A stretch of 64,000 bases of DNA, taken from positions 25,276-89,275 of the forward strand of contig NZ_SMKW01000009.1 in the NCBI RefSeq assembly GCF_004348985.1, in the 5' to 3' direction. The notes beneath the pieces were generated by a model. It did no database searches and was not told the DNA's origin. It saw only the letters and a list, made by a program, of their open reading frames with translations. Shown here one piece after another: positions 7,030-38,575 of the stretch. Source of the stretch: Saccharopolyspora elongata (GTDB lineage Bacteria > Actinomycetota > Actinomycetes > Mycobacteriales > Pseudonocardiaceae). Positions within the stretch are counted from its first letter, which is position 1; each line of letters begins with the position of its first letter. The position numbers and the translations under genes were made by a program.

Positions 7030-7112
7030 GTCTCGCCTGGTCAGGCCCCGTGAGCACTTTGGGTTGCCATGGCAGCACAAAGTGCTCACGGGCATTCACC
7101 TGCGGAAACGTC

Positions 7113-7673: not shown

Positions 7674-7680
7674 GCGCCCA

Positions 7681-7828
7681 TCTTGCCATTGACAAGATGA
7701 GGATCTTCCCCGCAGTTTCAATTCAAACTGCGGACCTCCGGCGTGTCGGACCCCGACACGCCGGAGGCTGTGGACAACTCCCGCAATTTCAATGGAAATC
7801 AGAGGTTCGATTTCCATTGAAATTGCGG
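7681..7828. promoter_or_regulatory. Cluster of operator-like palindromes upstream of tetR
   Basis: Imperfect palindrome TCTTGCCATTGACAAGA (7681-7697). Near-perfect palindrome CCGCAGTTTCAATTCAAACTGCGG (7709-7733). Perfect 20-nt inverted repeat CCGCAATTTCAATGGAAATC/GATTTCCATTGAAATTGCGG (7781-7828) sharing the motif GCA.TTTCAAT. Confidence 0.4.
7738..7764 (-). terminator. GC-rich hairpin downstream of LLM gene
   Basis: CCGGCGTGTCGG-ACCC-CGACACGCCGG is a perfect 12-bp stem. No obvious T-tract follows, so it may be a factor-independent terminator or an attenuator. Confidence 0.3.
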
Positions 7829-7836
7829 AACCCCGC

Positions 7837-8883
7837 TCAGGCGTCGGTGGCGAGTTGCTTGACCTGCTCGATGAGCTTGGCCCGGCCGGCCGCATCGCCC
7901 GCCAGCGGCGTCACGTTGAGGGTCGTGACGCCCGATTCCTTCAGCGCCGCCAGCCGCTCCTTGACGTGGCTCGCGGTGCCGACCAGCGAGGTCTTCTCCA
8001 GCAGCTCGCGGGGCACCGCCGCGGCGGCCTCCTCCTTCTTGCCGCTGAGGTAGAGGTCCTGGATCAGCTCCGCCTCGGCCTCGAAGCCGTAGCGGCGGGC
8101 CAGGTTGTTGTAGAAGTTCTTGCCCTTCGCGCCCATCCCGCCGACGTAGAGCGCCACGTGCGGCCGCGCGAAGTCCAGCAGGTCGTCGAGCCCCTCGCCG
8201 ATGGCCAGCGGCGCCTGGGCGACCACGTCCAGCGGCGGCAGCGACGCGTCGCGCTTCGCCTTGCCCGCCGCCAGCGGCTCGCCCCACACCTCGGCCGCCC
8301 GCTCCGGCAGGTAGAAGATCGGCTCCCAGGCCTCGGCGATCTCGGCGACCAGCTCGACGTTCTTCGGCCCGATCGCGGCGATCATGATCGGGATCCGGTC
8401 GCGCACCGGGTGGTTGATGATCTTCAGCGGCTTGCCCAGTCCGGTGCCCTGGTCTGCGGGCAGCGGGATGCTGTAGTGCTTGCCCTCGTGCTGGACCTTC
8501 TCGCGGCGCCAGACCTGGCGGCAGATGTCGACGATCTCGCGGGTCCGGCCCAGCGGCGCGTGGTAGGGCACCCCGTGGAAGCCCTCGATGACCTGCGGCC
8601 CGGACGCGCCGATGCCCAGGGTGAACCGGCCGTCGGAGACGAAGTCCAGGCCCGCCGCGGTCATCGCGGTCAGCGTCGGCGTGCGGGTGTAGATCTGCAG
8701 GATGCCGGAGGCGATCTCCAGGCGTTCGGTGCGGGCGGCGATGAAGCCCATCTGGCTGACCGCGTCGAACGAGTACGCCTCCGGGACGTACACGATGTCC
8801 AGTCCGGCCTTCTCGTAGGTGGCCAGGTCGTCGACGGTTTCTTTGAACCCTCCGCTGTAGTTCAGCGGCATCCCGATGCGCAT
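7837..8883 (-). CDS. LLM-class (luciferase-like) F420-dependent oxidoreductase
   Basis: MRIGMPLNYSGGF... with a TIM-barrel LLM signature. About 348 aa. Confidence 0.85.
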   Translation of the reverse strand: MRIGMPLNYSGGFKETVDDLATYEKAGLDIVYVPEAYSFDAVSQMGFIAARTERLEIASGILQIYTRTPTLTAMTAAGLDFVSDGRFTLGIGASGPQVIEGFHGVPYHAPLGRTREIVDICRQVWRREKVQHEGKHYSIPLPADQGTGLGKPLKIINHPVRDRIPIMIAAIGPKNVELVAEIAEAWEPIFYLPERAAEVWGEPLAAGKAKRDASLPPLDVVAQAPLAIGEGLDDLLDFARPHVALYVGGMGAKGKNFYNNLARRYGFEAEAELIQDLYLSGKKEEAAAAVPRELLEKTSLVGTASHVKERLAALKESGVTTLNVTPLAGDAAGRAKLIEQVKQLATDA

Positions 8884-10680: not shown

Positions 10681-11421
10681 ATGCGATGCAGCCTGCGGGA
10701 GTTCGGCGGCCTGCTGCGCGATCACGCGGTCGGGCCGGAGGTCGAGGCGTTCCTGATCGCGCGGCCGCAGACCGCCGACGAGCCGCCGGACGGCCCCTGG
10801 GGCGAGCTGGCCGCGAACCTGGTGCGCGCATCGGTGTTCGGATTCGCGCAGGTCAACGTCCCCGGTGAGGCCGAGCTGCGCGCCGTCGTGGCGGTCGGCA
10901 ACGGACACGCGGCGCGGGTGCTGGTGCAGGACGGGTCGGTGACCGCGAAGAAGGTCCGTCCCGATGCGCCGTGGCCGGCGCTGGTGGGCTGCCTGCCGGA
11001 CCGCGAACCGGCCGAGGGCTGCGAGGTCACCGTGCCGACCCGCGTGCTGGCCGAGGCGCGCGCCGACGCCGAGCAGCGCGGAGATCGCCAGGTGGACTGG
11101 CTGGCCTACGAGCTCAAGCGCCGCCGCGTGCCGCCGGAAGACGCGCAGGCCATCGGCGACCTGCTGCGGCGCGCGGACGGGATGACCGCCCATCTGACGG
11201 TCGGCTTGCGGGTCGCCTCCGGTGCGGTGCGCAGCGGGCCGTTCGGGATCGAGGTGCACCACGCGCCGTCCGGCCGCGCCGCCGTGATCCCGGAGTCGCC
11301 GGACGACACGTTCACCGTGGTCGCCCCGGCGGGCGCCTACCTGCTCGGCAAGACCCTCCAGGAGTACGTCGAAGACCTGTGGGAAGGCACCAGCGAGCGC
11401 ACCCAGCCCCTGCCCCGCTGA
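10681..11421 (+). CDS. Hypothetical protein
   Basis: 246-aa ORF with coding-like codon usage and no motif I can name with confidence. Confidence 0.5.
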   Translation: MRCSLREFGGLLRDHAVGPEVEAFLIARPQTADEPPDGPWGELAANLVRASVFGFAQVNVPGEAELRAVVAVGNGHAARVLVQDGSVTAKKVRPDAPWPALVGCLPDREPAEGCEVTVPTRVLAEARADAEQRGDRQVDWLAYELKRRRVPPEDAQAIGDLLRRADGMTAHLTVGLRVASGAVRSGPFGIEVHHAPSGRAAVIPESPDDTFTVVAPAGAYLLGKTLQEYVEDLWEGTSERTQPLPR

Positions 11422-11478
11422 CCCTGTCCACTGTGGAGGGCGGCGGCCGGGGATAGCCTGGCTTCGGAAGACCGTCCG

Positions 11479-12216
11479 ATGGGAAAGAAGGCCGACGTGG
11501 AGTTGCTGCTGCTGTCCAGTTCGATGAAGCACGGCACGGGTTTCCTCGAACACGCCATGCCGGCCGTGACCGAGCTGCTGGCCGGTCGCGGGCGGCTGCT
11601 GTTCGTCCCGTTCGCCAAGCGCGACCACGACGGCTACACGGCGACGGTGCAGGCCGCGGTCGCGCCGCTGGGCATCACCGTCGACGGCCTCCACCGGGCC
11701 GACGACCCGGTGGCGGCGGTGCGCGAGGCCGAGGCCGTGTTCATCGGCGGCGGGAACACCTTCCGCCTGCTGTCCACGCTGCACCGGCTCGGTCTGGTCA
11801 CCGCGCTGCGCGAGGCCGTGCGCGGCGGCACGCCGTACATGGGCGCGAGTGCGGGCACCAACATGGCCTGCCCCAGCCTGCGGACCAGCAACGACATGCC
11901 GATCGTCGAGCCACCGTCGTTCGAGGCGATCGGGCTGGTGCCGTTCCAGATCAACCCGCACTACCTGGACCCCGACCCGGGCAGCACGCACATGGGCGAG
12001 ACCCGCGAGCAGCGGATCGCGGAGTTCCTGGAGGACAACGACGTGCCCGTGCTGGGCCTCCGGGAAGGCGCCTGGCTGCGGGTCCGCGGTGAGCACGCCG
12101 AGCTCGGCGGCAGCACCGGCGCGCGGCTGTTCACCCGCGGCGCGGAGCCCCGCGAGCTCGGGCCCGGCGACGACGCCACGTTCCTGCTCCGCACCGAGCC
12201 GCACTACGACGCCTGA
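11479..12216 (+). CDS. pepE: Dipeptidase E (peptidase family S51)
   Basis: FIGGGNTFRLL and GASAGTNMACP motifs of S51 PepE. Confidence 0.8.
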   Translation: MGKKADVELLLLSSSMKHGTGFLEHAMPAVTELLAGRGRLLFVPFAKRDHDGYTATVQAAVAPLGITVDGLHRADDPVAAVREAEAVFIGGGNTFRLLSTLHRLGLVTALREAVRGGTPYMGASAGTNMACPSLRTSNDMPIVEPPSFEAIGLVPFQINPHYLDPDPGSTHMGETREQRIAEFLEDNDVPVLGLREGAWLRVRGEHAELGGSTGARLFTRGAEPRELGPGDDATFLLRTEPHYDA

Positions 12217-15406: not shown

Positions 15407-16432
15407 TATGCCCGCCACCTCGCGCTGACCTGCGAAAACAAGATTTCGCAGGTCAGCGCGGATTCGTTCAATGCGGTTGAGATCCGTTCACCGCAGTTCA
15501 GCGCACAGCGCTGCTCCCCGTTTGCTCCCCACCCTGCTCCCCGCCATGACCATCACATGTCTTTCCTCACACTGATTCAATTCCTACATGGTTGGCGACA
15601 CCTCCACGGGGCGCGGAGAGCACCCGATGCTGACGACGCACCTGGCCGCGCTCGCCGGCAAAGTCGATCAAGGAAGTGGGTTCCGCGCCGATTCTGCCTG
15701 GCATCGGTCGGTAAATCCGCAGGTCAAAGGTAGGTAGGTCGACCCATCTGTCGGGGCAACGTTCGTGATCTTCTTGACCCATCTCCTGGTTCAACTTTGG
15801 TGGCCCGCGCCAGCATGCCAGCCCACACGACCTGATCCTGTGCTGCGGCAGGATCTTCGCCTACGCCCCGTCCGATGCCAACTAGCCGCCAGGACGCAGA
15901 TGGAAAGGGCGTCGACGACGTCCGCCCGATCCGCGACGACATCGACCGCCGCGTCGGCGCCCTCTCGCCGGACTCGTGCCCGAGGCGGCGAAGTGAGAGC
16001 GATGTCCGCAACGTGATCATCGTGGGTCGGCGCTCTGATCCACTGCCCAAGTCCGTGCCTGGTGTCCGCGGCCATCGTGGACACCAGGCACGGAGGCTGT
16101 TCAGTGAAACCAGGATCCGGTTCTGCTTAATTTTCAGCCGTCAAACCGCCCGGGCTCTGCTGGGTCTGCCTCACGCCAGTAGCGCCGCCGGTTCCCACTT
16201 CACCAAGAAACTCCGCCAGGCCGGTATCTGGAAGCCCGCGTTCATCGCGCTCACCCAACTCGCCTCCAAAACACCCTGAATGGAGCAAGCTTGCCTCCGA
16301 ACGGTGCGATGTGCCGAAATGTCCTTGCTCTCTGCCCGTTATGGCTTTGATACTTACAGTCACGATGATCCAGGTGCTGAGACCCACGGGCGAGTGGCCC
16401 CTTGCCCGGGTTTACCTTTTCCGCACGAACGA

Positions 16433-17674
16433 ATGGGGATACCTGTGACCTCTGTCGAACCGTCGAAGCCGCTCACGATCCTCAATGGTCCCGTGCCGCA
16501 CGGGGTACCCAAACCGCCGGATAAGCGGTTTATCGTGTTTGGTCAGGATTGGCTCACGATGCAGACGTACATCAAGCAAGCACTCGCGCTGCCCATCAAC
16601 AAGGCGGACTGGGAGAAGGATTACGGCGGTTTCCCGGAACAGGAGAACGAAATCAAGAAGGTCCTGAGCGCCATGAAAAACGTCCAGGACCTGTGTCCAG
16701 ATTTTGGCGATCCCGACATGATCCGGAAAAAGATAATTAGCGACGGAGCTTACCTTACGGGCAAGACTCCGCCCGCTGAGATATACGGGCACATCATTTG
16801 GCTTTCCACGCAGGTCAGCAATACCGCGGGCACGTTCAAGTATACCTTCGAAAGCCTGAAGGATGTGCTCAGCACAGGAACGGAAAAGCAGCGGGCCGAC
16901 AACCTGCGGTTGATCCTCGGCGGCAGTGGAGGCCTGCTCTCCGAAGCCGAGAAGGAAAAGAAGAAGGTTGCCGAGCTCAGCCAGAAACTGGCCAAGTTCG
17001 ATCAGAAGATCACCGAGGCGAACAACGAAGTCGCCATCTACACGAGTTCTTCGTCCAAGATCCTCACGGCGGCGAACAAGAAGATCGGAGCCCTCGAGAC
17101 GGACGTCAAAAACCTGCACACGGCTGCGGACAAGGCGTACGAGGAGTGGCGCAAGTACACCATTGTCGCGGTCAGCACCTCGGTCGGGATCACGGTGATC
17201 AGCCTGGGGCTTCTTGCCTCGGTCGGATGGGCGTTTGGTATTGGGTTCGGGATCGCCGCGATCAAGGCGCGGAAGCTCTACAATCAGATGCTCGACCAAA
17301 TCAAGGACAAAGAGGTTGATATTCAGAAGAAGACCCGACTGGTCACCGATCTGACCGGCCTGAACTCCTCCATTCCGTCGATCGGGGATTCGCTGACTCG
17401 TTTCAAGAACAACCTGCAGGAGATCGAGGGGGTGTGGACCGACATCGCCGGCAAACTTGGCTACATCTGCTCGAACTACCAGGACAAGGACCTCGCCAAC
17501 CTTGCGTGGGTCCAGCAGTCCCTGAAGATCCTCGATGCCCAGCACAAGTGGGCCGAGATCCAGACGGCGGCTCAGGAGTTCACCCAACGGTCCCTCGTCA
17601 CCTTCTCTCCGGTCGGCAAATGGGGCAACAAGCTCACCGAGGAGCACCAGCAGGCCCACGCACTGGCGATCTGA
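16433..17674 (+). CDS. ClyA/Hbl/Nhe-family alpha-helical pore-forming toxin-like protein, component with hydrophobic hairpin
   Basis: Long coiled-coil-like sequence with a central ~35-aa hydrophobic stretch (IVAVSTSVGITVISLGLLASVGWAFGIGFGIAAI), as in the beta-tongue/helical hairpin of ClyA-family toxins. Low GC. The start is uncertain: 16319 and 16559 are alternatives. Confidence 0.55.
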   Translation: MGIPVTSVEPSKPLTILNGPVPHGVPKPPDKRFIVFGQDWLTMQTYIKQALALPINKADWEKDYGGFPEQENEIKKVLSAMKNVQDLCPDFGDPDMIRKKIISDGAYLTGKTPPAEIYGHIIWLSTQVSNTAGTFKYTFESLKDVLSTGTEKQRADNLRLILGGSGGLLSEAEKEKKKVAELSQKLAKFDQKITEANNEVAIYTSSSSKILTAANKKIGALETDVKNLHTAADKAYEEWRKYTIVAVSTSVGITVISLGLLASVGWAFGIGFGIAAIKARKLYNQMLDQIKDKEVDIQKKTRLVTDLTGLNSSIPSIGDSLTRFKNNLQEIEGVWTDIAGKLGYICSNYQDKDLANLAWVQQSLKILDAQHKWAEIQTAAQEFTQRSLVTFSPVGKWGNKLTEEHQQAHALAI

Positions 17675-17727
17675 AACGCGACCGGGCGCATTTGCCACGC
17701 ACCGAGCATGACCAAGGAGGCGTCGAC

Positions 17728-20133
17728 ATGCCCAACTGGGATGTGCTAACGAAGAAGACCGCCGCGTTGACGTTCAGCGAAGTGACCAAATCCGACGGCA
17801 ACCAGAAAGAGGTCACCGTCAGCGGGCTGCGGGTGCGCCTGTCGGAAATCGGTGCCTGTACGCAACTGATGTCCGTGTTCGCCGACACCCTCGTCGTCGA
17901 CTATCCCACTTTCGACGCTCCTGGTGTTGTGGTGGTCGCCCGGTCGCTGGACCTCTCGGCACTGAGCGGCTCGGCCCTGCCTCTGAGGGTGCCTGCCGGC
18001 CATGGCCCCAACGTGGCACAGTTCCTCATCGGCGGCACCGTCGGCGGCGACTTCCGTATCAATACGGAGAACGTGACCAGCGGCGCAAAGACCGTGCCGG
18101 TCGGGATGACCCCGCTGAAAGCCGCCCTGCACCAGGTCGCCCACGACGGCACGATCACGCAGGACATCAACTCCGGTGCCAAGGACATCGCGGACTTGAC
18201 CGGTCGTCCCTGGGCCCTGGGCAGCCTGAAGGCAAGCGTCACCGCCGCGGGATCCTTAATGGACACCGGCATTCCCGCGGACACCGCACTCGCTCGCTCG
18301 ATGCTGGCCTGGGTTGTCGCGTGCATTCAACAGGCTGGCCAAACCTGTTTCAGCAGTGCCACCGTGGCCGAACTGGCTACTGTCGGACGACAGGCCGCAG
18401 CCCTGCTCGCCACACTCGACGTCGCATCCGGCGCCCGCTACGTGCCCGTCCTGCCAGGGGCCTTCTACAAAGACAAAACCACGGCTCTGCTTGGCGTCCT
18501 GGGCGGTTATCAAGCCGATCTCAATACCCTGTCCACCGCGCAGGAAACTTCGAAGGCCCTGAAAAGGGTCGCCGGGACACTCGCCGCTAATGCCAAGACC
18601 GAGACCGACCCGCTGACCGTCCGGCTGCACAGCATCACGTCGAACGTCGACCATCTCAAGGCCGACCTCACCACCTTGACCGGTCAGCTCGACACCCAGT
18701 ACAACCGGGCCCACACCGCGTTCACGGTCATGCGCGCCAAAATTGCCCTGCAAGACGTGCAGAACTTCGTAGACGCCTACTTCGGCGCGGTCATCGCAGT
18801 CGTCAAAGTAGGTGTGGGGGCGGCCCAGGCCGTCGAGGACCCGACGAAGGTCTCGGAAGTCGCCCACGGACTCTACGACGCGGCGGACAAGGCATACACG
18901 GCGATTGGCCAGATCCCGGAAGACCAACCCGGCGACGACGAACTACTCCAGGCGACCCGCACGCTACTGCGTACCCAACAACGCATTATCGCTTCCTTCG
19001 AATCCGCGACCACGCTGTGGAACGCCCAGGACAACGAAACCATCGGCGCGTCCCCCCGGCCACTGACGGAGTCCGACCAGCAGTTCGCGGCCGATCCGAC
19101 CGTGGCGTGGGATGTGTACCTGACACGGGCGCAGGCAGCCCTGGACACCATCAAGCAGCGGATCGGCCAATCCCACGCCGAGGAGGCGCAACAGGCGGCG
19201 AACAACTACTGGGCCGAGTTGATGATCTTCGGGCGGTATGGCAAGGCTCTCGCGGTCACGGCGAACGCCTATGCCGCCCAGCTCGCCGAGGCCAGTATGG
19301 TGCGCGCCCAGATCAAGGCGACGAACGAAGTGGCCGATCGCTGGAAGGCTCTGGAGCAGACCTGCCGCACCGACAAGGAGCGGCAGGCCCTACTCATGGG
19401 GATACTGCAGACCCGGGTGGACACCGTCAAACGGTCGCTGCACGTGGCGTGGACCTACTATCGCGACGCGTACTTCTATCTTTACTTTGCCCAGCCACCA
19501 GCGATCGATCTCGACGCGCCTATCTCAGATATCCGGCGCCAACTGGCTGCGATGACCGACTGGGTCGAGCGAGCGATCAGCCAGAGCGGTAACAAAGTCC
19601 AGTTGCCCGGAAGAGACGCGACGATCAGCCTTGATCTGCCGATCATCCACGCGGACACCGCACACCAGTCGGCAGCCGGCGTCATCGCCGCCACGCTCGC
19701 CCAAGACCCCACGAACAAGATGTGGACGCTGAGCTGGACCGTGCCGATGGGCGCACCGCTGCTCGCGCAGCAGCTTCCGGACAACGGCAATGTCGCAATC
19801 TGGGTGACCTCAGCCGAGTTCTTTGTGGACGACGTGACTCCGAACCCCGCGGGCAGGGTCATCGTCGAGGTGGCGACCTCCGGCTGCTACCAGAACGGAT
19901 TCGGGCCGGCCGAGTCACACACCTTTGTCGCCAAGGGGATCACTGGGACCTACGCCTACAAGCAGGAGGGGAAGCAGGTCTACTCGCCGTGGGAGATCGG
20001 CAGAGACGTCTACATGACACCGACGTTATTCACACAGTGGACCATGACCTTCGACCAGAACGGTGGGAATCCACAGCGGGCGACGAAGCTGCGTCTGAAC
20101 TTCCACGTCGACTACCAGAAGAAGCCACATTAA
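17728..20133 (+). CDS. Large (~800 aa) mostly helical protein with C-terminal beta-rich domain, toxin-operon partner
   Basis: Strong Shine-Dalgarno AAGGAGG 8 nt before the ATG. Co-oriented and tightly spaced with flanking toxin-like genes. No enzymatic motif recognised. Confidence 0.6.
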   Translation: MPNWDVLTKKTAALTFSEVTKSDGNQKEVTVSGLRVRLSEIGACTQLMSVFADTLVVDYPTFDAPGVVVVARSLDLSALSGSALPLRVPAGHGPNVAQFLIGGTVGGDFRINTENVTSGAKTVPVGMTPLKAALHQVAHDGTITQDINSGAKDIADLTGRPWALGSLKASVTAAGSLMDTGIPADTALARSMLAWVVACIQQAGQTCFSSATVAELATVGRQAAALLATLDVASGARYVPVLPGAFYKDKTTALLGVLGGYQADLNTLSTAQETSKALKRVAGTLAANAKTETDPLTVRLHSITSNVDHLKADLTTLTGQLDTQYNRAHTAFTVMRAKIALQDVQNFVDAYFGAVIAVVKVGVGAAQAVEDPTKVSEVAHGLYDAADKAYTAIGQIPEDQPGDDELLQATRTLLRTQQRIIASFESATTLWNAQDNETIGASPRPLTESDQQFAADPTVAWDVYLTRAQAALDTIKQRIGQSHAEEAQQAANNYWAELMIFGRYGKALAVTANAYAAQLAEASMVRAQIKATNEVADRWKALEQTCRTDKERQALLMGILQTRVDTVKRSLHVAWTYYRDAYFYLYFAQPPAIDLDAPISDIRRQLAAMTDWVERAISQSGNKVQLPGRDATISLDLPIIHADTAHQSAAGVIAATLAQDPTNKMWTLSWTVPMGAPLLAQQLPDNGNVAIWVTSAEFFVDDVTPNPAGRVIVEVATSGCYQNGFGPAESHTFVAKGITGTYAYKQEGKQVYSPWEIGRDVYMTPTLFTQWTMTFDQNGGNPQRATKLRLNFHVDYQKKPH

Positions 20134-20161
20134 GCGCGGCGAACCACCACGGGAGCGCACG

Positions 20162-30135: not shown

Positions 30136-31125
30136 ATGTGGGCTGGGGGACGGTCCCAGCAAACCGGGGTTGACGAGGATGTAGATTCGTCGTTCTTTGT
30201 CTCCTATTCCCACGAGGATGCGCATTACGTGACGCGCCTCGTTGACCACCTGCGAGGTTTTGGGCTTCCGCTTTGGTTCGACGGTCATTTGGCGTGGGGT
30301 AGTCAGTTCACCCGGGAGATACGTCAACGGCTCTCGCGTGCCCTGGGGATCATCGTGGTCATGTCGCCGGGCGCTGACCAGTCTGAGTGGGTAGAGCGTG
30401 AAATCCTCGAAGGTCAACGACATGATCGTCTCTTCTTGCCGATCCTGCTGAGTGGGGAACGACTGTTCCTGCTTGCCAGCAGCAACTACTTCGATGCGCG
30501 GGACGGTTCATTTCCTGGTGAGCGGGAGATCCAGGAGCTCCAACGCATCCGAGACGCGAAGCCCGGCTTTGTGCCTCGGCAGTCGCCGCTGGACATCCCC
30601 GCTGGAAAACCCGCGCCTCGCACCACACGTGTTCCTGCTCAGATCTCCCTGCGGAAGCTCTCAACATTCCTCGCCGATGGCCAGCTCGAACATGCCGACA
30701 TCCTGACGACCTCACTGCTTCTCGAGTCGGTGAATCGCATCGACCACGGGTGGATGCGCAGAACGGACGGGAAAACGATTTCTGCTGGTCTGCTGCACGA
30801 TGTGGACGACCTCTGGTCCAGGTTTTCCGGCGGACAGCATGGATTTCGGGCGCAACTAGCGCTACACCGAGTCCCTCCGCCGGGCGCGCCAGAGGGACGC
30901 CAGCGGGACTTTTCCGCGTTGGCACTTTCCCTCGGTTGGAAGAGTGCCCAGCGTGACACTATGCCGAGATATGGTGATTTCATCGCCCGTCCGGAGTTCC
31001 CAGCCGGCTTCTTTCCGACCCTGCGCAACCCGCAGCTCGAACAGAATCAAAGCTGGCATGACCACTGGATGGAAACCGTGATGGCAGTTCAGTTGCAGCT
31101 TCGCGCGACGAAAGGGTGGAAATAA
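30136..31125 (+). CDS. TIR domain protein with C-terminal domain of unknown function
   Basis: FFVSYSHEDAHYV...LPLWFDGH...IIVVMSPGADQSEWVEREI is a bacterial TIR (TIR_2-like) pattern including the conserved Glu. The C-terminal ~190 aa are unassigned. Confidence 0.8.
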   Translation: MWAGGRSQQTGVDEDVDSSFFVSYSHEDAHYVTRLVDHLRGFGLPLWFDGHLAWGSQFTREIRQRLSRALGIIVVMSPGADQSEWVEREILEGQRHDRLFLPILLSGERLFLLASSNYFDARDGSFPGEREIQELQRIRDAKPGFVPRQSPLDIPAGKPAPRTTRVPAQISLRKLSTFLADGQLEHADILTTSLLLESVNRIDHGWMRRTDGKTISAGLLHDVDDLWSRFSGGQHGFRAQLALHRVPPPGAPEGRQRDFSALALSLGWKSAQRDTMPRYGDFIARPEFPAGFFPTLRNPQLEQNQSWHDHWMETVMAVQLQLRATKGWK

Positions 31126-32873
31126 CGGTGCTAACGACAGTGGTCGTGCTTTCTGTGTTTCTCCTCATCGGGCTGTTAGCGTTCGTGGTTAAAAGCATTG
31201 GCCGGGTGCCGACCGGCCATGTTGGCCTTGTCTATCGCACGTTCGGACGGCGCCACCCGGACGATCGCTTCAGGGTGCGCGTGCATGGCAGTCCCGGCCC
31301 CCAAGCCGCGATTCTTGAGGCCGATCACATCTACTTCCTTCCTTTCCTCATCTACAAAGTCACCTACGCGCCCCAGACATACGTGCCGCCAGGAACGATC
31401 GGCGTCGTCCGGGCGAAAGAGGGCGCTACTCCGCAAGACCGGCCGCTTTGCCGACACGTCGAGTGCGATCAGTTCCAGGACGGCCACAAATTCCTCACGA
31501 ACGGCGGCCAGGCGGGAAAGCAACCGGCCATCCTCCGGGGCGGGGCGTCCTACGATATCAACCCCTGGATCTTCGATGTGATCACGGTCGACAACATCGG
31601 TGAAGGTCGCTACGGGCTCACCGCCGAAGACCTGAGGGAGATCACTGTTCCGGAAGGTGAGACGGGTGTGGTGATCGCGCTCGACGGCAACCCGCCCGGC
31701 GAGGAGGGCGGCGTAGTCGGCCGGCGGGTCCCCGGACACCAGAGCTTCGAGTATCCCTGGAAGTTTCTTGCCAATGGCGGCCAGCGTGGCGCACAAGCGG
31801 AAACGCTGAGCCATGGCGGTCTGTATGCGATCAATCCATGGTTCGCGCGGATCGTGCTCATCCCGACCCGCAATCTCACCCTGGAATGGACGCGGAAAGA
31901 GGACAAACCACGAAGCAACTTCGATGCGGCGCTCGACAAGATTGTCATCAACGTCGAAGGCCACCGGCTAAGTTCGAGAATGTCGCAGATCATTCGGATT
32001 CCGGCCAAGGCGGCACCGCAGCTCGTCGGCCTCTTCGGCGAGCATGAAAGCGATGCGTTCGGCGTGAGCGGCGCATCGGACCCGACCCCAGTGCAGCGGT
32101 TCGTCGAAGGAGTGCTCGGTCGCACCGTTGAGGGGTATTTCCACAGCACCGCAGCCGACTACCGAGTTCTTGATTTCCTCGGCAACCACAACGAGGTGCG
32201 TCTAGAACTTGAGGGACGGGTGCGTGACGACCTCGCCGAATGGGATGTGGAAGCGGTCCGTACGACGCTGGGCGAATTCGAGCCGGAAGGTACTGACATC
32301 GACCGGTTTCGGCAGAAAATTCAGCAAGAACGTGATCGTCAGCACTACCTTGAACACCGTGAGAAAAACGTTCAGATGGAAGCGAAAATTGAAGAGGTGT
32401 TGATCGCGATTGAGCGAAATCGAGGCAAGGTCGCGACCGCTGAACTGGAGGACGAAATCAGGCTGCTGGGCGTGGACCATGTCGCGTTCGCGCGCTTCCT
32501 GGACCGACTAGCGGAGATGGACGTGCCCGAGTTCGTCGGAAGCGATTCAAGCGCGCAAAACATGCCTTTGCCCGCTGCCCTTAACCTGATCAATAAGTAC
32601 CTTGCCGGGCCTGGCAGGGAGCCCGGGGCGACCTCGCCACGGGAGTTGGACCCGGCGCGCGGTTCCCGATCTGATCACCAGCTATCGCCGCAGCCCGCTG
32701 ACGACGATTCTGCCACCGCGACAACGGAACGGGTGAGCCGAGTTCGCGGCACCATGCGATCCACTGTGGATGGTGAGGCCTACTCGGCCGACCCCGAGAA
32801 CGGGCAAACCCCGAAGATTAACCGCGTACGCGGAACGGGAAAATCGCATCAGCCCGAGAACGACGATGCGTAA
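31116..32873 (+). CDS. SPFH/band-7 (flotillin-like) membrane protein
   Basis: N-terminal TM helix, then an SPFH-like core (GRVPTGHVGLVYRTFG...PFLIYKV...). It contains an internal tandem repeat FLTNGGQAGKQ...YDINPW / FLANGGQRGAQ...YAINPW and a C-terminal coiled coil. The GTG start overlaps the TIR gene's last codons. Confidence 0.7.
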   Translation: MEITVLTTVVVLSVFLLIGLLAFVVKSIGRVPTGHVGLVYRTFGRRHPDDRFRVRVHGSPGPQAAILEADHIYFLPFLIYKVTYAPQTYVPPGTIGVVRAKEGATPQDRPLCRHVECDQFQDGHKFLTNGGQAGKQPAILRGGASYDINPWIFDVITVDNIGEGRYGLTAEDLREITVPEGETGVVIALDGNPPGEEGGVVGRRVPGHQSFEYPWKFLANGGQRGAQAETLSHGGLYAINPWFARIVLIPTRNLTLEWTRKEDKPRSNFDAALDKIVINVEGHRLSSRMSQIIRIPAKAAPQLVGLFGEHESDAFGVSGASDPTPVQRFVEGVLGRTVEGYFHSTAADYRVLDFLGNHNEVRLELEGRVRDDLAEWDVEAVRTTLGEFEPEGTDIDRFRQKIQQERDRQHYLEHREKNVQMEAKIEEVLIAIERNRGKVATAELEDEIRLLGVDHVAFARFLDRLAEMDVPEFVGSDSSAQNMPLPAALNLINKYLAGPGREPGATSPRELDPARGSRSDHQLSPQPADDDSATATTERVSRVRGTMRSTVDGEAYSADPENGQTPKINRVRGTGKSHQPENDDA

Positions 32874-32911
32874 CGAGGGCGCTCACGACGGCGGGAGATG
32901 AGGCAACGACC

Positions 32912-33949
32912 TTGGTGCGAATCCAAGCAGTTGGCACGCCACAAAGCGCAGTATGGAGCCACGGTCGTCCAGGCTTGTTCGCCATGGGCGTGTGGACGGA
33001 AAGAAAAGCCGGAAGCGGTGAGGACGCCGAGCCACTCTTGCTCCACGACTGGTCGCACAATGCGGGCCTCGCGGCGGTATTCGATGGCGCGGGTGGCGCC
33101 GGGGCAGCCAGCGCCGGACACTCGGCGCAGGGCGTCGAGCGCAGTCACGCATGGGTGGCGGCGCGTGCAGCACGCGGGCTGACGGAAGAGTGGTTCGTTA
33201 CGACCGGCCAGCACGGTGTCCAAGACCATGCGGCTTCACTGGAGCAGCATCTCGCCGAGCGGCTCGGCGAAGTGCGTGGCGCCAGCCGAAGCAGGATCGC
33301 CGGGTCTATGCGGCGGGATTTGCCGACGACCGTGGCGGCGTTGCGTTACGAGGTGCATCCCGACAGGGTCGTGTGGCAAGTGTTGTGGGCCGGGGACTCC
33401 CGTTGCTACCTGCTTGACTCCGAACACGGCCTGCAGCAGGTCAGTCGCGACGACGCCGAGTCGGGTGATGCACTGGTGCTGCTGACCGAGGACCCACCGA
33501 TGACCAACATGGTGTCCGCGAACCGCCGATTCACAATCCACGCCGCTCCCGGTCACGCGGCGATCCCCTGTCTGCTCGTGTGCGCCACGGATGGCTTCTT
33601 CGGTTACCTGAACACGCCGGCCGAGTTCGAGTTCCTGCTGCTCGACACGATGGCGAACGCCGCTGACTTAACAGATTGGAGCACGCTCCTGACACAAACG
33701 GTGAGTTCCTACACCGGCGACGACGCATCGCTTGCACTGGTAGCGCTGGGATTCGACGATTTCGATCAGTTGCGCGCCGATTTCGAGTGGCGCAGATCGG
33801 CGCTTCAGGCCGAACACATCGAGCCCACCAGACGAGCATCGGACGGGGACCGGGAATCGTTCGTCGCCGCGAGAATGGAATCCTGGAAGCTCTACCGCGG
33901 GTCCTACGAGCAGCGGATGCCGCGGCAGCACGGGCAGGAACGTCCGTGA
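32912..33949 (+). CDS. PP2C-family Ser/Thr protein phosphatase
   Basis: Motifs AVFDGAGGAG, WAGDSRCYLL and CATDGFF. The start is uncertain: TTG/GTG at 32912-32915 or ATG at 32984. Confidence 0.8.
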   Translation: MVRIQAVGTPQSAVWSHGRPGLFAMGVWTERKAGSGEDAEPLLLHDWSHNAGLAAVFDGAGGAGAASAGHSAQGVERSHAWVAARAARGLTEEWFVTTGQHGVQDHAASLEQHLAERLGEVRGASRSRIAGSMRRDLPTTVAALRYEVHPDRVVWQVLWAGDSRCYLLDSEHGLQQVSRDDAESGDALVLLTEDPPMTNMVSANRRFTIHAAPGHAAIPCLLVCATDGFFGYLNTPAEFEFLLLDTMANAADLTDWSTLLTQTVSSYTGDDASLALVALGFDDFDQLRADFEWRRSALQAEHIEPTRRASDGDRESFVAARMESWKLYRGSYEQRMPRQHGQERP

Positions 33950-35007
33950 AGAAAGGCGACGTCATCGGCGACTACCACATCACCAGCAAACCCACGAACA
34001 CCGATGCGGGTAAATGCTTGTGGGCGTTCGCGGAAAAGGACGGCCAGGAGTTCTTCATCAAGGAGTTCCTCGACCCGAAGCGCCCTCGGGAAAATTTCAT
34101 GGGAAGCCCGGAGGCCAAACGTGCGATCGTCGCGCAATGCGAGGAATTCGAGGAGCGGCACTGGTCGGTTATCGAACTCCTCGACCCGGAGGACCTCGAT
34201 GCTGGGAACCTGGTCACCGCAGTCGATTTCTTCTTCGAGGGAAGCCGCTACTACAAGGTCACCAGGCGGCTGCATCTGGCGGACCTGGCGGACCCACACC
34301 TGCTCACGCCGTACCAGAAGAGCGTGCTGCTCGGCACCCTGGCCGACAGTCTGCGGCTGCTGCATCGCAAGGGCATCGTGCACGGCGACCTCAAGCCGCA
34401 GAACGTGCTGCTGCACCAACCGCCGGGCAGTGACCTCTTTACTGCCAAGCTGATCGACTTCGACGACGCCTACATGTCCGGAGCCCCGCCCGAGCGCACG
34501 GTGATCGGCGGGGACGCGCTATATGGGGCACCGGAGTGGATACGGTATGTGCAAGCCGACCCTGAAATCGGACCTGAACAGCTGGTCACCGCCGTCGACA
34601 TGTTCGCATTCGGCCTGATGGCGCACACCTACCTCACCGGCGCACTGCCCGGCTACGACAAGCGGCACGGCTCTCCAGCCGAGGCGGTCAACGCGGGAGA
34701 CGTGCTCGAGTTCGACGACCGGCTGAGTCCGGCACTGCTGCACACCTTGCGCGCGTTGTTACGCGCCGACCCGGGCTCCAGACCGCACATCGCCGATGTC
34801 CAGGACCTGTTGGAACAACAGGAGCAACTCGCGCTGCGAACAAATCCCCCTGCGCCGGAGGACGATTACCGAGTGAAGGTCGGGCGGCTGCAGATCAACT
34901 TCGGCGGTGGGAAAGAGCCCCCAAGCCCTTCGAGCGGTACCCAGTCGCGCGTCCGCATCAATTTGGACGGGCGCAATCCTGAAGGCCGAGACGAGCAAAG
35001 GAGATAA
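33946..35007 (+). CDS. Ser/Thr protein kinase
   Basis: VAIK-type Lys (FFIKEF), catalytic loop HGDLKPQN, DFD, GAPEW. The GTG start overlaps the phosphatase stop (GTGA). Confidence 0.85.
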   Translation: MKKGDVIGDYHITSKPTNTDAGKCLWAFAEKDGQEFFIKEFLDPKRPRENFMGSPEAKRAIVAQCEEFEERHWSVIELLDPEDLDAGNLVTAVDFFFEGSRYYKVTRRLHLADLADPHLLTPYQKSVLLGTLADSLRLLHRKGIVHGDLKPQNVLLHQPPGSDLFTAKLIDFDDAYMSGAPPERTVIGGDALYGAPEWIRYVQADPEIGPEQLVTAVDMFAFGLMAHTYLTGALPGYDKRHGSPAEAVNAGDVLEFDDRLSPALLHTLRALLRADPGSRPHIADVQDLLEQQEQLALRTNPPAPEDDYRVKVGRLQINFGGGKEPPSPSSGTQSRVRINLDGRNPEGRDEQRR

Positions 35008-35010
35008 ACG

Positions 35011-35718
35011 TTGACCGGGAGCGGCCCGAATAACAACAACCTGAAGTATGCCGTGGACATCGTGTTGTGCATCGACGTGACCGGCAGCATGGGACCCACC
35101 TTGGATCAGGTCAAGGAAAACGCCTTGTCCTTCCACCAGCAGCTCAGCTCGGTGATGGAGGACAAGGGACGCAGCATCAGCCAGTTGCGGCTGAAGGTCA
35201 TCGCGTTCCGAGACTTCGCCGACAGTCCGGACAACGCCATCGAGCAGACCGGTTTCCTGACCTTCCCCGAACAAGCCCACGATTTTGATACGTTCGTGCG
35301 TGGCCTGCGCGCATCGGGTGGGGGAGACGCGCCAGAATCAGGCATGGAGGCGCTGGCCCTCGCGATGGCGTCCGACTGGGAGCAGGGACTCGACCGGCGG
35401 CGCCACGTGATCGTGGTGTTCACCGATGCCCCCGCGCACCCTCTCGGCTCACCGGACCAGATACGGGCGCGCACCTATCCGCAGTCTATTCCGCGCTCGA
35501 TGGCCGAGGCATTCGATCAGTGGGGTTTCGCGCACAGCCAGAAGGCGATCATGGAGAACTCCTCCAAGCGACTGCTGCTTTTCGCCCCGGAAACCCAACC
35601 TTGGGTCGACATCTCCGAGAGCTGGAACAACACGCTGTTCTTGCCGTCTAAGGCGGGAGAGGGCGTTCATGAGTGGGAGATGGACGAGATCATCAACACC
35701 ATTGCCCACAGTCTCTGA
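35011..35718 (+). CDS. von Willebrand factor type A domain protein (TerY-like)
   Basis: MIDAS motif DIVLCIDVTGSM. TTG start 3 nt after the kinase stop, with GGAGA upstream. Confidence 0.8.
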   Translation: MTGSGPNNNNLKYAVDIVLCIDVTGSMGPTLDQVKENALSFHQQLSSVMEDKGRSISQLRLKVIAFRDFADSPDNAIEQTGFLTFPEQAHDFDTFVRGLRASGGGDAPESGMEALALAMASDWEQGLDRRRHVIVVFTDAPAHPLGSPDQIRARTYPQSIPRSMAEAFDQWGFAHSQKAIMENSSKRLLLFAPETQPWVDISESWNNTLFLPSKAGEGVHEWEMDEIINTIAHSL

Positions 35719-35731
35719 CAAGGCGGTGCGA

Positions 35732-36419
35732 GATGTGGCGGCGACCCAGAAACCGGAAGAGACACCCGCAAAGGGTGCGGGCGAGCTGGGGTCCGGATTC
35801 CTCAAATGAGTTCGAGTCGCGCTGGTACGACGAGCGCGGTCGCCCCACGGGCCACGTGCGGGTGGTGGACTGGGACGAGCGGTTCGATGCCCCAGATCGT
35901 GTGGCCTTCCTTGTGGAAGGTCACGGCGTAATACTGCAATTGCGAGCGGGCCGGATCAAAATCCACGAGACTCAGAAACAGCGAAGAAGCATTCGGCTGA
36001 ATCTTCCGATCGAATCGTGTGTCTCCGCGAATGTTCAAGAGCGCAGGACGTCAGACGGATCGGTTGTGCTCCGGTTCGACCTCCGGGCAAAGATCGGGGC
36101 GTCCTGGCCAGAGCCGATGTCCGTCTCTCTGCTCTTTCCGGCTGAATGCCGACCGCAGCTTTCCCACCTCGTTGATCAGTTACATGAGTCGGATCGAGTC
36201 GAACCTGTCGGACCCGCGGCAGCGCAGGTAAGCGAACCACCGCCGCCCGCGAATGAGGTACCGCCGGGCCGTGTTGATGAGGAACGCAAGTCGCCGACGT
36301 TCCGGCAGCTATCCGTCGTCGGGGTTCCAGACACCGAGGAATGGTTGAGCTTTCATCCGTTACCGAGCAGCGCCGACGTTTTCGCGTTCAAACCGCCTCG
36401 CGGGACTGGAAGAAGGTAG
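35732..36419 (+). CDS. Hypothetical protein with highly basic N-terminus
   Basis: 229-aa ORF in the same operon, no recognisable domain. Confidence 0.45.
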
Positions 36420-36431
36420 GCGGGAGAGCAC

Positions 36432-37346
36432 ATGTCCGACCAGGTGTGGGTCTGCGACGGCTGCAACACTAACAACGCCGCCGAGGCCGCGGTCTGCCGC
36501 CGGTGTAAGCGCGAACCGGGCAGCACGACGTCCACGGAAGTCCGGCTGGCATCCGACGAGGCCGTGACGCCCCGTCGACAGGACACGGAGCCACCGGATA
36601 CCTCGACGCCCTCGTTGTCCCGGCCGGACGAATCCGCGACGCCCCTCTCACGGGTTCGGGTCAGCAGCCCGGATTCGTCCCCCGCCTCCAGGTCAGGCTC
36701 CGCACCGGAGGACATGCCTCGCGAAACGGAGAGTTCCGCACCGGTGGAGTCCTCTCGGCCGTCCCGACGTGATCGGAGAACGCTGGCGGTGGTCGGCGTG
36801 CTGATCGTTCTGGTAATCGCCGGCCTTATTGCCCTTCTAGCCAGCCTCAGCCTAGCCAGCCTCAGCGTGGCAACGAACGAGAACCACTCAGGCCCCACGT
36901 CAACCGTGCCAACCTCGTCTTTCACTTTCCCGCCCAGCGCCTCCGCTTGGAGCGCCTACGGCGGGCTCGACGCGGAATCCTTCGACTGGCAGTCCGGGGG
37001 CATCGCCGTCAACCAAGATGGCTACATCGGCCCGCTCTCCCGCGGAGACTCCATTCGCTTCACGAACGTCGATTTCGGTTCGGTGCCGGCGACAGAGGTT
37101 TCAGCCCAGCTGTGGACCTGGGTCGGTGACGGGGTGAATGCGAAGATCGACGTCCGACTCGATGGCCCGGAGGGCAAGCTGATCGGCAAGATCAATGTGT
37201 CGCCCGAGAAGCGGCGGGAATGGAAGAATGTGCCGGTCAAACTCGTAAATGGCCCCGTGACGGGCAAGCACACCGTGTACCTGACCTTCGTCGCAGACAA
37301 GCCCGAGGACTTCATGTACCTCAACTGGATCCAGTTCCACCGCTGA
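36432..37346 (+). CDS. Zinc-ribbon / single-TM / carbohydrate-binding-module-like protein
   Basis: N-terminal double CxxC (VCDGCNTNN...CRRCK), Ser/Pro-rich linker, TM helix (LAVVGVLIVLVIAGLIALLASL). C-terminal beta-sandwich resembling CBM6/CBM35 (FTNVDFG...YLNWIQF). Confidence 0.6.
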   Translation: MSDQVWVCDGCNTNNAAEAAVCRRCKREPGSTTSTEVRLASDEAVTPRRQDTEPPDTSTPSLSRPDESATPLSRVRVSSPDSSPASRSGSAPEDMPRETESSAPVESSRPSRRDRRTLAVVGVLIVLVIAGLIALLASLSLASLSVATNENHSGPTSTVPTSSFTFPPSASAWSAYGGLDAESFDWQSGGIAVNQDGYIGPLSRGDSIRFTNVDFGSVPATEVSAQLWTWVGDGVNAKIDVRLDGPEGKLIGKINVSPEKRREWKNVPVKLVNGPVTGKHTVYLTFVADKPEDFMYLNWIQFHR

Positions 37347-37469
37347 CCGCGCCATAAACCGTCCACAATGGAACAGCCCTTCCGGGCCATTCCGGCCGGG
37401 CAGATAAGTGAAGTGACTTCGCCCCCCCGCGGTGTGGCGGCATACTGTGATCAAGATCAGATGAGGCGG

Positions 37470-37674
37470 TGGTGGCGCTGGCCGGTCAGGGAAGTCGGGC
37501 GGACGAAGAGCCCAGCTGGGACTCGGTGGGTGTCGCTGCCGGCCAGCATCGCCACGGCCTACGAGACCTTGATGCAGTCGCACGATAGCCCGTGGGTGTT
37601 CTGTACCCCGGACCGGGCGCCGCTGCGCCGGTCGAATTTCCGGCAACACTGCTGGCGTCCCGACTTGGGCCAGG
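37470..37674 (+). pseudogene. Tyrosine integrase internal fragment, truncated by IS insertion
   Basis: TKSPAGTRWVSLPASIATAYETL...PLRRSNFRQHCWRPDLGQV aligns with PKTPASVRAVHLPPFLVDLLTEH...LHRRSNFRRRFWLPALAGD of the intact integrase (58150-58360). The catalytic C-terminus is missing. Confidence 0.5.
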
Positions 37675-38290
37675 TTAGTGCGTACTTGTTCGGGTGCGGA
37701 TGGCGTCGAGGACCTGTTGGACGTCGTTGGATAGCGGGTCGGCTGCGGTGACGACGTGTTCACCGGCCTGGATCTGGATGGTGCGGTAGCGGCGGACCGT
37801 TTTGACGAACTTCTTGATCGACCAGCCGGTGGTGTCCTCGATCCAGCGGGAGACGGCCAGGGCGGCGAACACGATCGTGAGGGGCTTCGATCGAGTCTTT
37901 GGTGCGGTGGACATCGGGCGGGCGGCCAGGTCTGACTTGGCCATCCGGAAGCTCTTTTCGACCTGAAACAGCTGGTGGTAGGCGTCGATGACCTTCTCCG
38001 GGGTGGGCTCGGCGATGTTGGTGACGTAGCCCTTGATCCCGGCCAGCGCACGGGCCTTGGCCTCCAGCTCCCGGTTGACCGTCTTCGTTGCGTTGTCCAG
38101 CTTGACGAACCGGTTGCGCTTGACCGCGGTCTTGCCCGCGACGGCCTGCTCGGCCTTGGCTCGTCGATTCCCTTGAGCGTCCGGCGGGCCCGGTCGTGTT
38201 TGTATTGGTAGTAACGTACCTGGTCACGGCGCTTGTCGCGGCGCCCGGCAGGCAGGGCGTGTGCAAAGTTGATCTGTTCGGTTTAGGTTG
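37675..38290 (-). mobile_element. IS4-superfamily (IS1634-like) transposase remnant, frameshifted
   Basis: AVKRNRFVKLDNATKTVNRELEAKARALAGIKGYVTNIAE...YHQLFQVEKSFRMAKSDL (Y..RW.IE..F...K motif) in one frame. The upstream part (DKRRDQVRYYQYKH...) is in another frame. Confidence 0.55.
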
Positions 38291-38299
38291 TTTCGGGCA

Positions 38300-38575
38300 G
38301 TAGGTTCAGGAGTCGTTCGGGCCTGCGGTTGCCGGCGCGGAGTGCGGGGCGGATGTGGGTGGCTCCGTGCTGGCGGTGCAGGGTGATCGCGGTGTTGCGG
38401 AGGATGGCGAAGTTCTGGGGTGCGTTGCCGGTGCGGGCACGGTGGCGGTCTTCGTCGAAGGCGACGTCACGGATCAGGTGCAGGCGGTTCTCGATCGCCC
38501 AATGGCCCTGGATGAGTTCCGCCAGGTCAGCTGGGGTGGCGGCGGTGGGTGGCAGATCGGTCAGATAGCAGGCTG
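38300..38575 (-). mobile_element. ISAs1-family transposase C-terminal remnant
   Basis: ELIQGHWAIENRLHLIRDVAFDEDRHRARTGNAPQNFAILRNTAITLL matches the conserved HW.IEN.LHW.LDVTF.ED..R.R.G C-terminus of ISAs1/H-repeat transposases. An in-frame stop lies upstream. Confidence 0.55.

Follow-up and report, generated by a model that had tools for sequence, protein, structure and literature searches.

TIR enzymes hold a central place in the immunity of bacteria, plants and animals, and the key question for each of them is how it is switched on. This question is raised by a gene at 30136-31125 in a 64,000-nucleotide (nt) stretch of contig NZ_SMKW01000009.1 of Saccharopolyspora elongata (the whole stretch is referred to below as the window), the product of which joins a TIR domain to a second, C-terminal half. 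The switch of this TIR appears to be a GUN4-like domain that is tied to a membrane scaffold of the SPFH/Band_7 family, encoded by the next gene. The genes at 30136-31125 and 31128-32873 are read here, with a probability of roughly 0.55, as a self-contained, horizontally mobile, two-gene conflict module composed of an effector-GUN4 protein and an SPFH scaffold.

The open reading frame (ORF) of the TIR-GUN4 gene extends from an ATG at 30136 to a TAA at 31123-31125, encodes 329 amino acids (aa) and is preceded by a GGGGG Shine-Dalgarno-like run located 7 nt 5' of the ATG. Its translation shows full-length 100% identity to an NCBI protein of Saccharopolyspora shandongensis that is named "toll/interleukin-1 receptor domain-containing protein". 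More than 160 homologues were detected at an E-value (E) of 1e-3 or less, mostly in Actinomycetota, with hosts including Streptomyces, Lentzea, Frankia, Sphaerisporangium, Streptosporangium, Cryptosporangium and Pseudonocardiaceae. The TIR-GUN4 gene is a real conserved gene and not a chance ORF of a genome with 65-70% guanine plus cytosine (GC). Its AlphaFold2 (AF2) model has a predicted local distance difference test score (pLDDT) of 87.9 and a predicted template modelling score of 0.85.

A preliminary description of this DNA had assigned TIR hallmarks and an intact catalytic-glutamate context to the N-terminal half, and both assignments are borne out. Pfam TIR_2 (PF13676) matches aa 20-131 with 63.3 bits against a cutoff of 28 (E 3.9e-17). 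Both phmmer and a profile built from 45 sequences of the family matched bacterial TIR NADases of solved structure, namely BtTir (7uxr), AbTir, BtpA and PdTIR, as well as SARM1. The domain has the flavodoxin-like TIR fold, and W85 and E89 of 'SEWVEREI' align to the tryptophan, and to the glutamate four residues on, in BtTir 7uxr and BtpA 4lzp, so that the W-x-x-x-E catalytic motif is present at the start of helix C. E89 is taken here to be equivalent to SARM1 E642 (WVHKE642I) and BtpA E217, the catalytic glutamate of enzymatic TIRs. Of the 45 homologues, 44 have E89, 43 have W85, 44 have E87 and all 45 have E92. F21, S23, Y24 and W47 are kept in 41, 42, 42 and 45 sequences, respectively, and the beta-A motif F21/S23/Y24/D28 in 41-44. 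Neither the TIR fold nor the conserved glutamate is missing, and the glutamate context is supported by sequence, profile and predicted structure alike. The TIR half is predicted to be an NAD+-cleaving enzyme.

The C-terminal half had been described as an approximately 190-aa domain with no recognisable motif, which does not hold for the fold. Pfam GUN4 (PF05419) matches aa 169-298 with 52.2 bits against a gathering cutoff of 29.2 (E 9.3e-14), and the half is composed of a low-confidence linker of ~25 aa and a GUN4 core of ~160 aa. The family profile matches GUN4 chains in the PDB at E 9e-10 to 4e-5, with the best match to T. elongatus Gun4 (1z3x, E 9e-10) and further matches to the structures from Arabidopsis (7e2r), Chlamydomonas (4ykb) and Synechocystis (1y6i). 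The domain has the 'cupped hand' fold of the GUN4 core. It is a divergent GUN4-like subfamily, which scores 30-52 bits with Pfam GUN4 versus more than 140 bits for cyanobacterial multi-GUN4 proteins. A GUN4-profile search of a set of 5.8 billion proteins returned only fragments of the same family.

The GUN4-like domain is constantly linked to an SPFH gene. Related loci were gathered by exact-protein look-ups, a genome scan, which gave two loci, and a metagenome scan, and were scored with purpose-built hidden Markov models of TIR, GUN4 and SPFH. Forty loci of the GUN4 subfamily were obtained, of which about 32 are independent after removal of duplicates. In all 35 loci with at least 500 nt of downstream sequence, a gene for a transmembrane-anchored SPFH/Band_7 protein starts -18 to +210 nt from the stop codon; the remaining five, which have no SPFH match, end within 96 nt or less. 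All other flanking genes vary between loci, even in comparison with the closest relative (L042, 73% identity). The flanks are all different and only the pair is constant, and the unit is therefore a two-gene cassette. Across 26 loci, the pairwise identity matrices of GUN4 and SPFH correlate strongly (Spearman 0.81, Mantel p 5e-4); the domain and its partner protein diversify in step. An SPFH neighbour was not found at three cyanobacterial plasmid GUN4 loci, a small sample with incomplete plasmid annotation, and the SPFH coupling looks specific to this GUN4 subfamily. The contigs that carry the cyanobacterial-type proteins P0314 and P0336 are so short that no neighbours are visible on them.

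The two genes also look translationally coupled, because a Shine-Dalgarno-like run lies inside the upstream gene, the genes are separated by a 2-nt gap or joined by a 10-nt overlap, and 4-nt overlaps occur in homologous loci. The run, GAAAGGG at 31110-31116, is located within the end of the TIR-GUN4 gene ahead of the SPFH start. The 2-nt gap is that between the TIR-GUN4 stop and the annotated GTG at 31128, and the 10-nt overlap results if the longest partner ORF (585 aa), which opens at a GTG at 31116, is used. The 4-nt overlaps were seen at several homologous loci (e.g., L003, L006, L043, L044).

The domain ahead of this constant pair is exchangeable. The effectors that precede GUN4 and then SPFH are TIR, double TIR, caspase, kinase and trypsin-VMAP-TIR. 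Caspase-GUN4 and Pkinase-GUN4 proteins are each followed by SPFH at L010 and L044, respectively, and at L043 a Trypco1 gene is followed by a gene for a Trypsin-VMAP-M8-TIR-GUN4 protein (P0265) and then by SPFH. L043 and L044 were picked from a GUN4-only search and are therefore unbiased regarding SPFH. TIR-TIR-GUN4 followed by SPFH, often with an extra stand-alone TIR gene, was found at L008, L031 and L048, the last on the megaplasmid of Streptomyces clavuligerus. A 475-aa protein at L040 carries an unassigned N-terminal domain of ~320 aa before GUN4, and the SPFH partner follows. A phmmer search of 1.84 billion representatives with the GUN4 domain as query yielded 354 matches. Among the 50 closest of these, 49 match Pfam GUN4, and the N-terminal domains are TIR in 23, caspase in six, protein kinase in five, and SEFIR, CHAT, trypsin, BTAD and AAA_35 in one each. 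The effector is thus swapped while GUN4 stays constant with SPFH, and this comparative genomics supports the guess in the preliminary description that the C-terminal half is a sensing or partner-binding domain.

The extra stand-alone TIR genes are located at 11391-12011 (-) in L008, ~8112-8324 (-) in L031 and 6940-7497 (+) in L048; they lie convergently downstream of SPFH or, on the S. clavuligerus megaplasmid, overlap the module upstream. At L040 (stretch 4020-8814), a gene for a DUF4407 membrane protein (Pfam E 1e-60) lies after SPFH, and a cNMP-binding Crp-type regulator is encoded upstream.

The partner belongs to the SPFH/Band_7 family, with a Pfam Band_7 match above threshold at aa 221-417 (44.2 bits against a cutoff of 23.6, E 2.8e-11), an SPFH fold and a long helix that follows it. 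Its AF2 model (pLDDT 82) is composed of a transmembrane helix, a beta-rich part (aa 28-294), an alpha/beta SPFH core, a helix and a disordered tail. The hydrophobic N-terminal helix (aa 2-27), a membrane anchor, is also present in the aligned SPFH homologues. Two beta-rich repeats precede the core (31383-31589 and 31647-31862), and a BLASTP comparison of one with the other gave 40% identity over 72 aa (E 1e-12). Foldseek matched the partner, with E between 8e-9 and 3e-4, to SPFH proteins that form cages (prohibitin, erlin, stomatin, HflK/C and flotillin), and aligned it to the eukaryotic major vault protein (MVP) over ~565 columns (E 4e-8); identity to the matched proteins is only 10-15%. Oligomers of the partner are predicted to take the form of a large ring or cage. 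Its bulk is probably cytoplasmic, because basic residues follow the transmembrane helix, relatives are fused to cytoplasmic-type domains and the TIR-GUN4 protein has no signal peptide. One such relative, the 1016-aa protein P0186 of the same SPFH clade on a metagenome contig, has a complete C-terminal CHAT protease domain and a Trypco2 gene next to it. CHAT fusions of this kind fit a cytoplasmic scaffold that carries effectors.

Long-form partners (e.g., L008, L031) match the repeat region of the SPFH model twice, which suggests an extra repeat. Two further SPFH relatives (P0225 and P0236) carry only a kinase C-lobe segment after the SPFH part; the view of such SPFH-'kinase' fusions as a sign of an active kinase was toned down, as just the C-lobe (profile positions 160-259) is present. 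The features of both genes are collected in Table 1.

Table 1. Features of the TIR-GUN4 gene and its SPFH partner; positions are those of the window.
Feature	Position	Strand	Basis
TIR-GUN4 gene, 329 aa + TAA stop	30136..31125	+	ORF list; 100% identity to NCBI Saccharopolyspora protein
TIR domain, aa 20-131	30193..30528	+	Pfam TIR_2
E89 codon, predicted catalytic glutamate (W85-V-E-R-E89-I)	30400..30402	+	Alignment to BtTir 7uxr and BtpA 4lzp
Linker, low-confidence, poorly conserved, aa ~140-166	30553..30633	+	Per-block pLDDT 57-67 at aa 141-160; alignment columns variable and gapped
GUN4-like domain, aa ~167-325	30634..31110	+	Pfam GUN4
FFPTLRNPQLE motif, aa 292-302, equivalent of the GUN4 alpha6/alpha7 porphyrin-binding loop	31009..31041	+	HMMER alignment; conservation in 45 sequences
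SPFH/Band_7 partner, 581 aa from GTG 31128 (NCBI annotation, P0121, 100% identity)	31128..32873	+	Pfam Band_7
N-terminal transmembrane helix of SPFH partner, aa 2-27 of 585-aa ORF	31119..31196	+	AF2 helix, pLDDT 89-96; hydrophobic sequence
Tandem beta-rich repeats before SPFH core, aa 90-158 and 178-249	31383..31862	+	BLASTP self-comparison; AF2
SPFH/Band_7 core	31776..32366	+	Pfam Band_7; Foldseek
Long helix, aa 394-451 (58 residues), coiled-coil 'wall' helix typical of SPFH cages	32295..32468	+	AF2; inside Foldseek-aligned stretch
Disordered variable C-terminal tail of SPFH partner	32604..32870	+	pLDDT <50 at aa 497-585; unconserved in alignment

In the proposed module, the first gene would encode a cytoplasmic effector composed of the TIR and a GUN4-like regulatory or adaptor domain, and the second a membrane-anchored, flotillin/prohibitin-type SPFH protein with vault-like beta repeats that may form a ring or cage at the membrane, on its cytoplasmic side. 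The GUN4-like domain would couple the effector to the scaffold through direct docking or a shared ligand, and this coupling would hold the effector latent. The trigger may be stress on the membrane or from infection, detected by the SPFH assembly, or else a tetrapyrrole-like ligand in the GUN4 pocket. The trigger would let the TIR domains assemble and consume NAD+, leading to growth arrest or death (abortive infection or programmed cell death).

Deletion alleles bear on whether the coupling also serves activation. Three such alleles were found in five metagenome contigs (L032 689-2243; L033 1814-2745, L033/34; L035 12-1062, L035/36). The end of the TIR (aa ~125-138) is joined out of frame to the middle of SPFH at model positions 180, 291 and 280; the TIR is intact, and the deletion removes GUN4 together with the N-terminal half of SPFH. 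The view of L032-L036 as a genuine minimal variant with a TIR and a short SPFH was rejected, as out-of-frame fusions at three different junctions are deletion remnants. These alleles are a weak hint that the TIR alone is tolerated and that GUN4 and SPFH are needed for activation and not only for restraint.

The most conserved residues of the GUN4-like domain are relevant to what it may sense. Conservation in the family peaks at FFPTLRNPQLE, where P294, R297, N298, P299 and E302 are invariant in the 45 sequences; this motif is specific to this GUN4 subfamily. The porphyrin site of the Synechocystis protein (SynGUN4) consists of the alpha2/alpha3 and alpha6/alpha7 loops and the 'greasy palm' (PMC1084334). 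The HMMER alignment to SynGUN4 1y6i places W206 on Trp129 of the alpha2/alpha3 loop, W268 on Trp183, P294 on Pro208 and L296 on Leu210. The structural loop residues Pro208 and Leu210 are well represented in the family: P294 is kept in 45 of 45 sequences, of which 39 have L and four have M at position 296. A conserved pocket function of the domain is likely, with porphyrin as a candidate ligand only.

These residues bear on a second explanation, possible though clearly less probable than the two-gene conflict module, with which it is compatible. The pair may be a tetrapyrrole-gated effector, in which the GUN4-like domain takes up porphyrin, haem or bilin and thereby controls the TIR NADase allosterically, in line with the tetrapyrrole level in the cell, and SPFH only holds the complex at the membrane. 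Coproporphyrin III is an intermediate of the haem pathway in Actinobacteria and hence a candidate ligand. The GUN4 fold and core are conserved, and the two functional GUN4 loops are its best-conserved parts (W206/W129, P294/P208, L296/L210, with R297, N298 and P299 invariant). The explanation extends the proposal of Kaur, Aravind and colleagues for cyanobacterial GUN4 fusions, in which allosteric tetrapyrrole sensing was put forward for GUN4-effector proteins (PMC7159879), and plant GUN4 that has bound porphyrin associates with membranes (PMC2757182). However, the Arg214 that SynGUN4 needs to bind porphyrin (PMC1084334) does not appear to be retained at its position, the loop residues Trp189 and Trp198 are replaced, and the hosts are non-photosynthetic. 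The RNP motif and W206 are not conserved in the caspase-GUN4 relative, yet its SPFH link persists, and tetrapyrrole gating alone leaves the invariant SPFH linkage unexplained.

A more specific form of the scaffold idea is held more tentatively still. A vault- or flotillin-like SPFH cage at the inner face of the membrane might use GUN4 as a cargo tag, possibly ligand-gated, by which toxic effectors such as a TIR NADase, caspase or CHAT proteases, trypsin and kinases are loaded into or onto it; infection or membrane damage would unleash them by opening the cage or clustering its cargo. SPFH cages confine or regulate client enzymes, as in HflK/C with FtsH, prohibitin with the m-AAA protease and stomatin with NfeD, and vaults (MVP) carry PARP4. 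With such clients known, a scaffolded or caged effector is therefore a natural model. If true, the caged-effector idea would represent a new class of immunity or programmed-cell-death system in multicellular actinobacteria and would place both SPFH scaffolds and the GUN4 fold in a new role beyond photosynthesis.

A signalling scheme like that of Thoeris, in which the TIR senses infection and makes an NAD-derived signal and the SPFH membrane protein is the activated effector (e.g., by membrane disruption), is improbable. The layout of two genes including a membrane protein would suit it, as would a weak Pfam ThsB_TIR match of the TIR half (23.1 bits against a cutoff of 21.2, far under the TIR_2 score) and matches of the PADLOC ThsB models (E 2e-4 to 5e-3). 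The top PADLOC match of the TIR half is the TIR of SAVED-TIR CBASS effectors (E 4e-12). The swap of the N-terminal domain to caspase, kinase or trypsin with GUN4 and SPFH kept points to a generic effector and not to a dedicated signal synthase. No nucleotide-sensor domain (SLOG, Macro, SAVED or CARF) is recognisable in the SPFH partner, with Band_7 as its only Pfam match and none in PADLOC or NCBIfam. No ThsA-like gene lies nearby. Membership in Thoeris was rejected, since 10 neighbouring proteins gave no match to ThsA, SIR2, SLOG or Macro and the effector is swappable.

The argument that the module serves conflict is circumstantial and comes from its effector repertoire, patchy distribution, defence-type neighbours, megaplasmid copy and low-GC setting. 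Wadjet-type genes (DUF2397, DUF2398, SbcC) adjoin the module in L006, a KAP NTPase and Trypco1 lie near it in L043, and SUKH immunity genes in L003. One copy is carried on the S. clavuligerus megaplasmid, and in the window the module lies in a lower-GC stretch with a transposase remnant. The decayed alleles suggest dispensable conflict genes, for which decay is usual. Least probable of all is a housekeeping or developmental membrane-microdomain module with the TIR as a protein-protein scaffold only, because, although most SPFH proteins serve as housekeeping scaffolds, metabolic genes surround some of the loci and the pair has no phage or virus association, the conserved catalytic Glu (44/45) and Trp (43/45), the patchy distribution, unrelated flanks and megaplasmid copies, the decayed alleles, and alternative N-terminal domains (caspase, CHAT, trypsin, kinase, SEFIR) that are the usual conflict-system repertoire (PMC7159879) all argue against it.

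Several points weigh against the two-gene conflict module itself. Loci such as L004 and L009 lie among ordinary metabolic genes, and enrichment in defence islands is not established. As most loci were retrieved by patterns derived from the TIR-GUN4 alignment, the sample is phylogenetically narrow (Actinomycetota-like). Co-variation of the identity matrices is expected of any co-inherited gene pair and is no proof of contact between GUN4 and SPFH. The membrane topology is inferred from charged residues flanking the transmembrane helix and from the fusions to cytoplasmic-type domains. The position of SynGUN4 Arg214 corresponds to Q300 by ungapped extension past the end of the alignment at L210/L296, and any ligand of the domain is putative; the invariant R297 lies three residues before Q300. 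The SPFH gene matches no PADLOC model, nor any NCBIfam family, and the pair is not a catalogued system.

Fusions of GUN4 to TIR, caspase, trypsin and kinase were noted earlier as cyanobacteria-specific, in NTPase-centred systems (PMC7159879, PMC8195603, bioRxiv 2022.07.19.500537). As in these cyanobacterial proteins (Kaur, Burroughs, Iyer and Aravind 2020, PMC7159879; 2021, PMC8195603), GUN4 and the effector are here located on one polypeptide, and the relative P0265 also carries the Trypsin and VMAP-M8 middle region. GUN4 in the cyanobacterial fusions was proposed to be a small-molecule-sensing regulatory domain, and the fusions sit in vWA-MoxR/VMAP, iSTAND or TRADD-N systems, often with EAD adaptors; an SPFH partner is not mentioned for them (PMC7159879, PMC8195603). 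In contrast, the protein described here belongs to a divergent actinobacterial subfamily with no EAD or VMAP region and no nearby MoxR ATPase, and has an obligate SPFH neighbour. The module lies outside the VMAP/vWA-MoxR ternary systems, as VMAP-M, EAD and MoxR are absent and the vWA gene downstream does not accompany it at other loci. Canonical GUN4, the Mg-chelatase cofactor (Synechocystis Sll0558, Arabidopsis GUN4), differs in several respects: the GUN4-like domain is joined here to a TIR and its host is a non-photosynthetic actinomycete, Arg214 does not appear to be retained at its position, several loop tryptophans are replaced, and FFPTLRNPQLE is subfamily-specific.

The TIR fold and the W-x-x-x-E motif are common to the protein described here and to BtpA, AbTir, BtTir, TIR-SAVED, ThsB and SARM1. 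The regulatory domain is GUN4-like, whereas known TIR effectors use SAVED, STING, SLOG, ARM or NLR modules, and the partner is an SPFH scaffold, whereas known TIR systems have a cyclase, Argonaute or ThsA. Like the SPFH cages (HflK/C, prohibitin, stomatin), the partner combines a transmembrane anchor with an SPFH core and a long helix of the wall type, as judged from the sequence and the model, and with the vault (MVP) it shares, over the ~565 aligned columns, the order of beta repeats, SPFH and helix. The operon logic is analogous to that of SPFH cages, in which the SPFH gene lies beside an enzyme that it may confine; the candidate client here is a GUN4-tagged TIR, caspase or kinase, versus the AAA+ or NfeD protease of known cages. 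Positions 308-423 of the PADLOC model PDLC04062 for PD-T4-6, a single-gene Ser/Thr-kinase anti-phage system, align to the GUN4-like domain (E 7e-8). The C-terminal region of PDLC04062 is GUN4-like, and kinase-GUN4 proteins are therefore already inside a family used for defence annotation. PD-T4-6 differs in having a kinase effector instead of a TIR, and no SPFH partner is modelled for it in PADLOC.

A search of full-text literature found no paper linking SPFH with TIR, anti-phage activity or phage defense, and a search for GUN4 with Streptomyces or phage found no description of the actinobacterial GUN4 subfamily. The pairing of GUN4 and SPFH with a modular effector slot is apparently undescribed in PADLOC and the searchable literature. 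If confirmed, it would represent a family of modular conflict systems with a single adaptor and a single scaffold for TIR, caspase, kinase and trypsin effectors. Such a family would provide a concrete immune function for bacterial SPFH/flotillin-like proteins. The GUN4 fold is regarded as confined to oxygenic phototrophs and would then be reused as a regulatory module in non-photosynthetic actinomycetes. With its megaplasmid copy, S. clavuligerus is a tractable test organism.

A phage or prophage origin of the pair is unsupported, with no match in 50,697 phage genomes or IMG/VR and only weak generic matches in PHROGs. A search with Rfam gave no RNA elements in 24000-38500, and no tRNA lies nearby. 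The GC content of the window is 0.58-0.65 over ~15-22 kb and 25-38 kb, versus ~0.70 at 1-14 kb. A prolyl-oligopeptidase (S9) ORF at 22999-24864 (-) reads through an N-terminal DDE_Tnp_1_assoc transposase-associated segment. The GC drop and the transposase segment in the 15-38 kb region suggest horizontally acquired, rearranged DNA. Large ORFs at 16280-22095 gave no Pfam matches.

Upstream of the module, a DUF6880 protein and a UPF0158 protein are encoded at 26191-27279 (-) and 28926-29396 (-), respectively, and two overlapping ORFs of 115 aa and 388 aa without a family match are located at 27327-28837 (+). The UPF0158 and TIR genes are 740 nt apart, and the only ORF in between, of 137 aa, has no matches.

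Five co-directional genes at 32912-37346 (+) directly follow the SPFH gene. The first is a 345-aa ORF with a weak PP2C signal alone (NCBIfam E 0.006) and no Pfam or PDB match. The second encodes a Ser/Thr kinase (Pkinase E 3e-19) with matches to mad6, MkoA and PD-T4-6 in PADLOC, and the third a vWA protein (35011-35718). The last two encode a 248-aa protein of no known family and a protein with a Zn-ribbon, a transmembrane segment and CBM6 (36432-37346). A single operon of the module with these genes was rejected, as none of them lies beside TIR-GUN4 and SPFH elsewhere, including in the 73%-identity relative. The make-up of the cluster recalls the TerY-P triad of vWA, phosphatase and kinase, with no match to a TerY-P model in PADLOC, and the cluster may be a separate conflict system.

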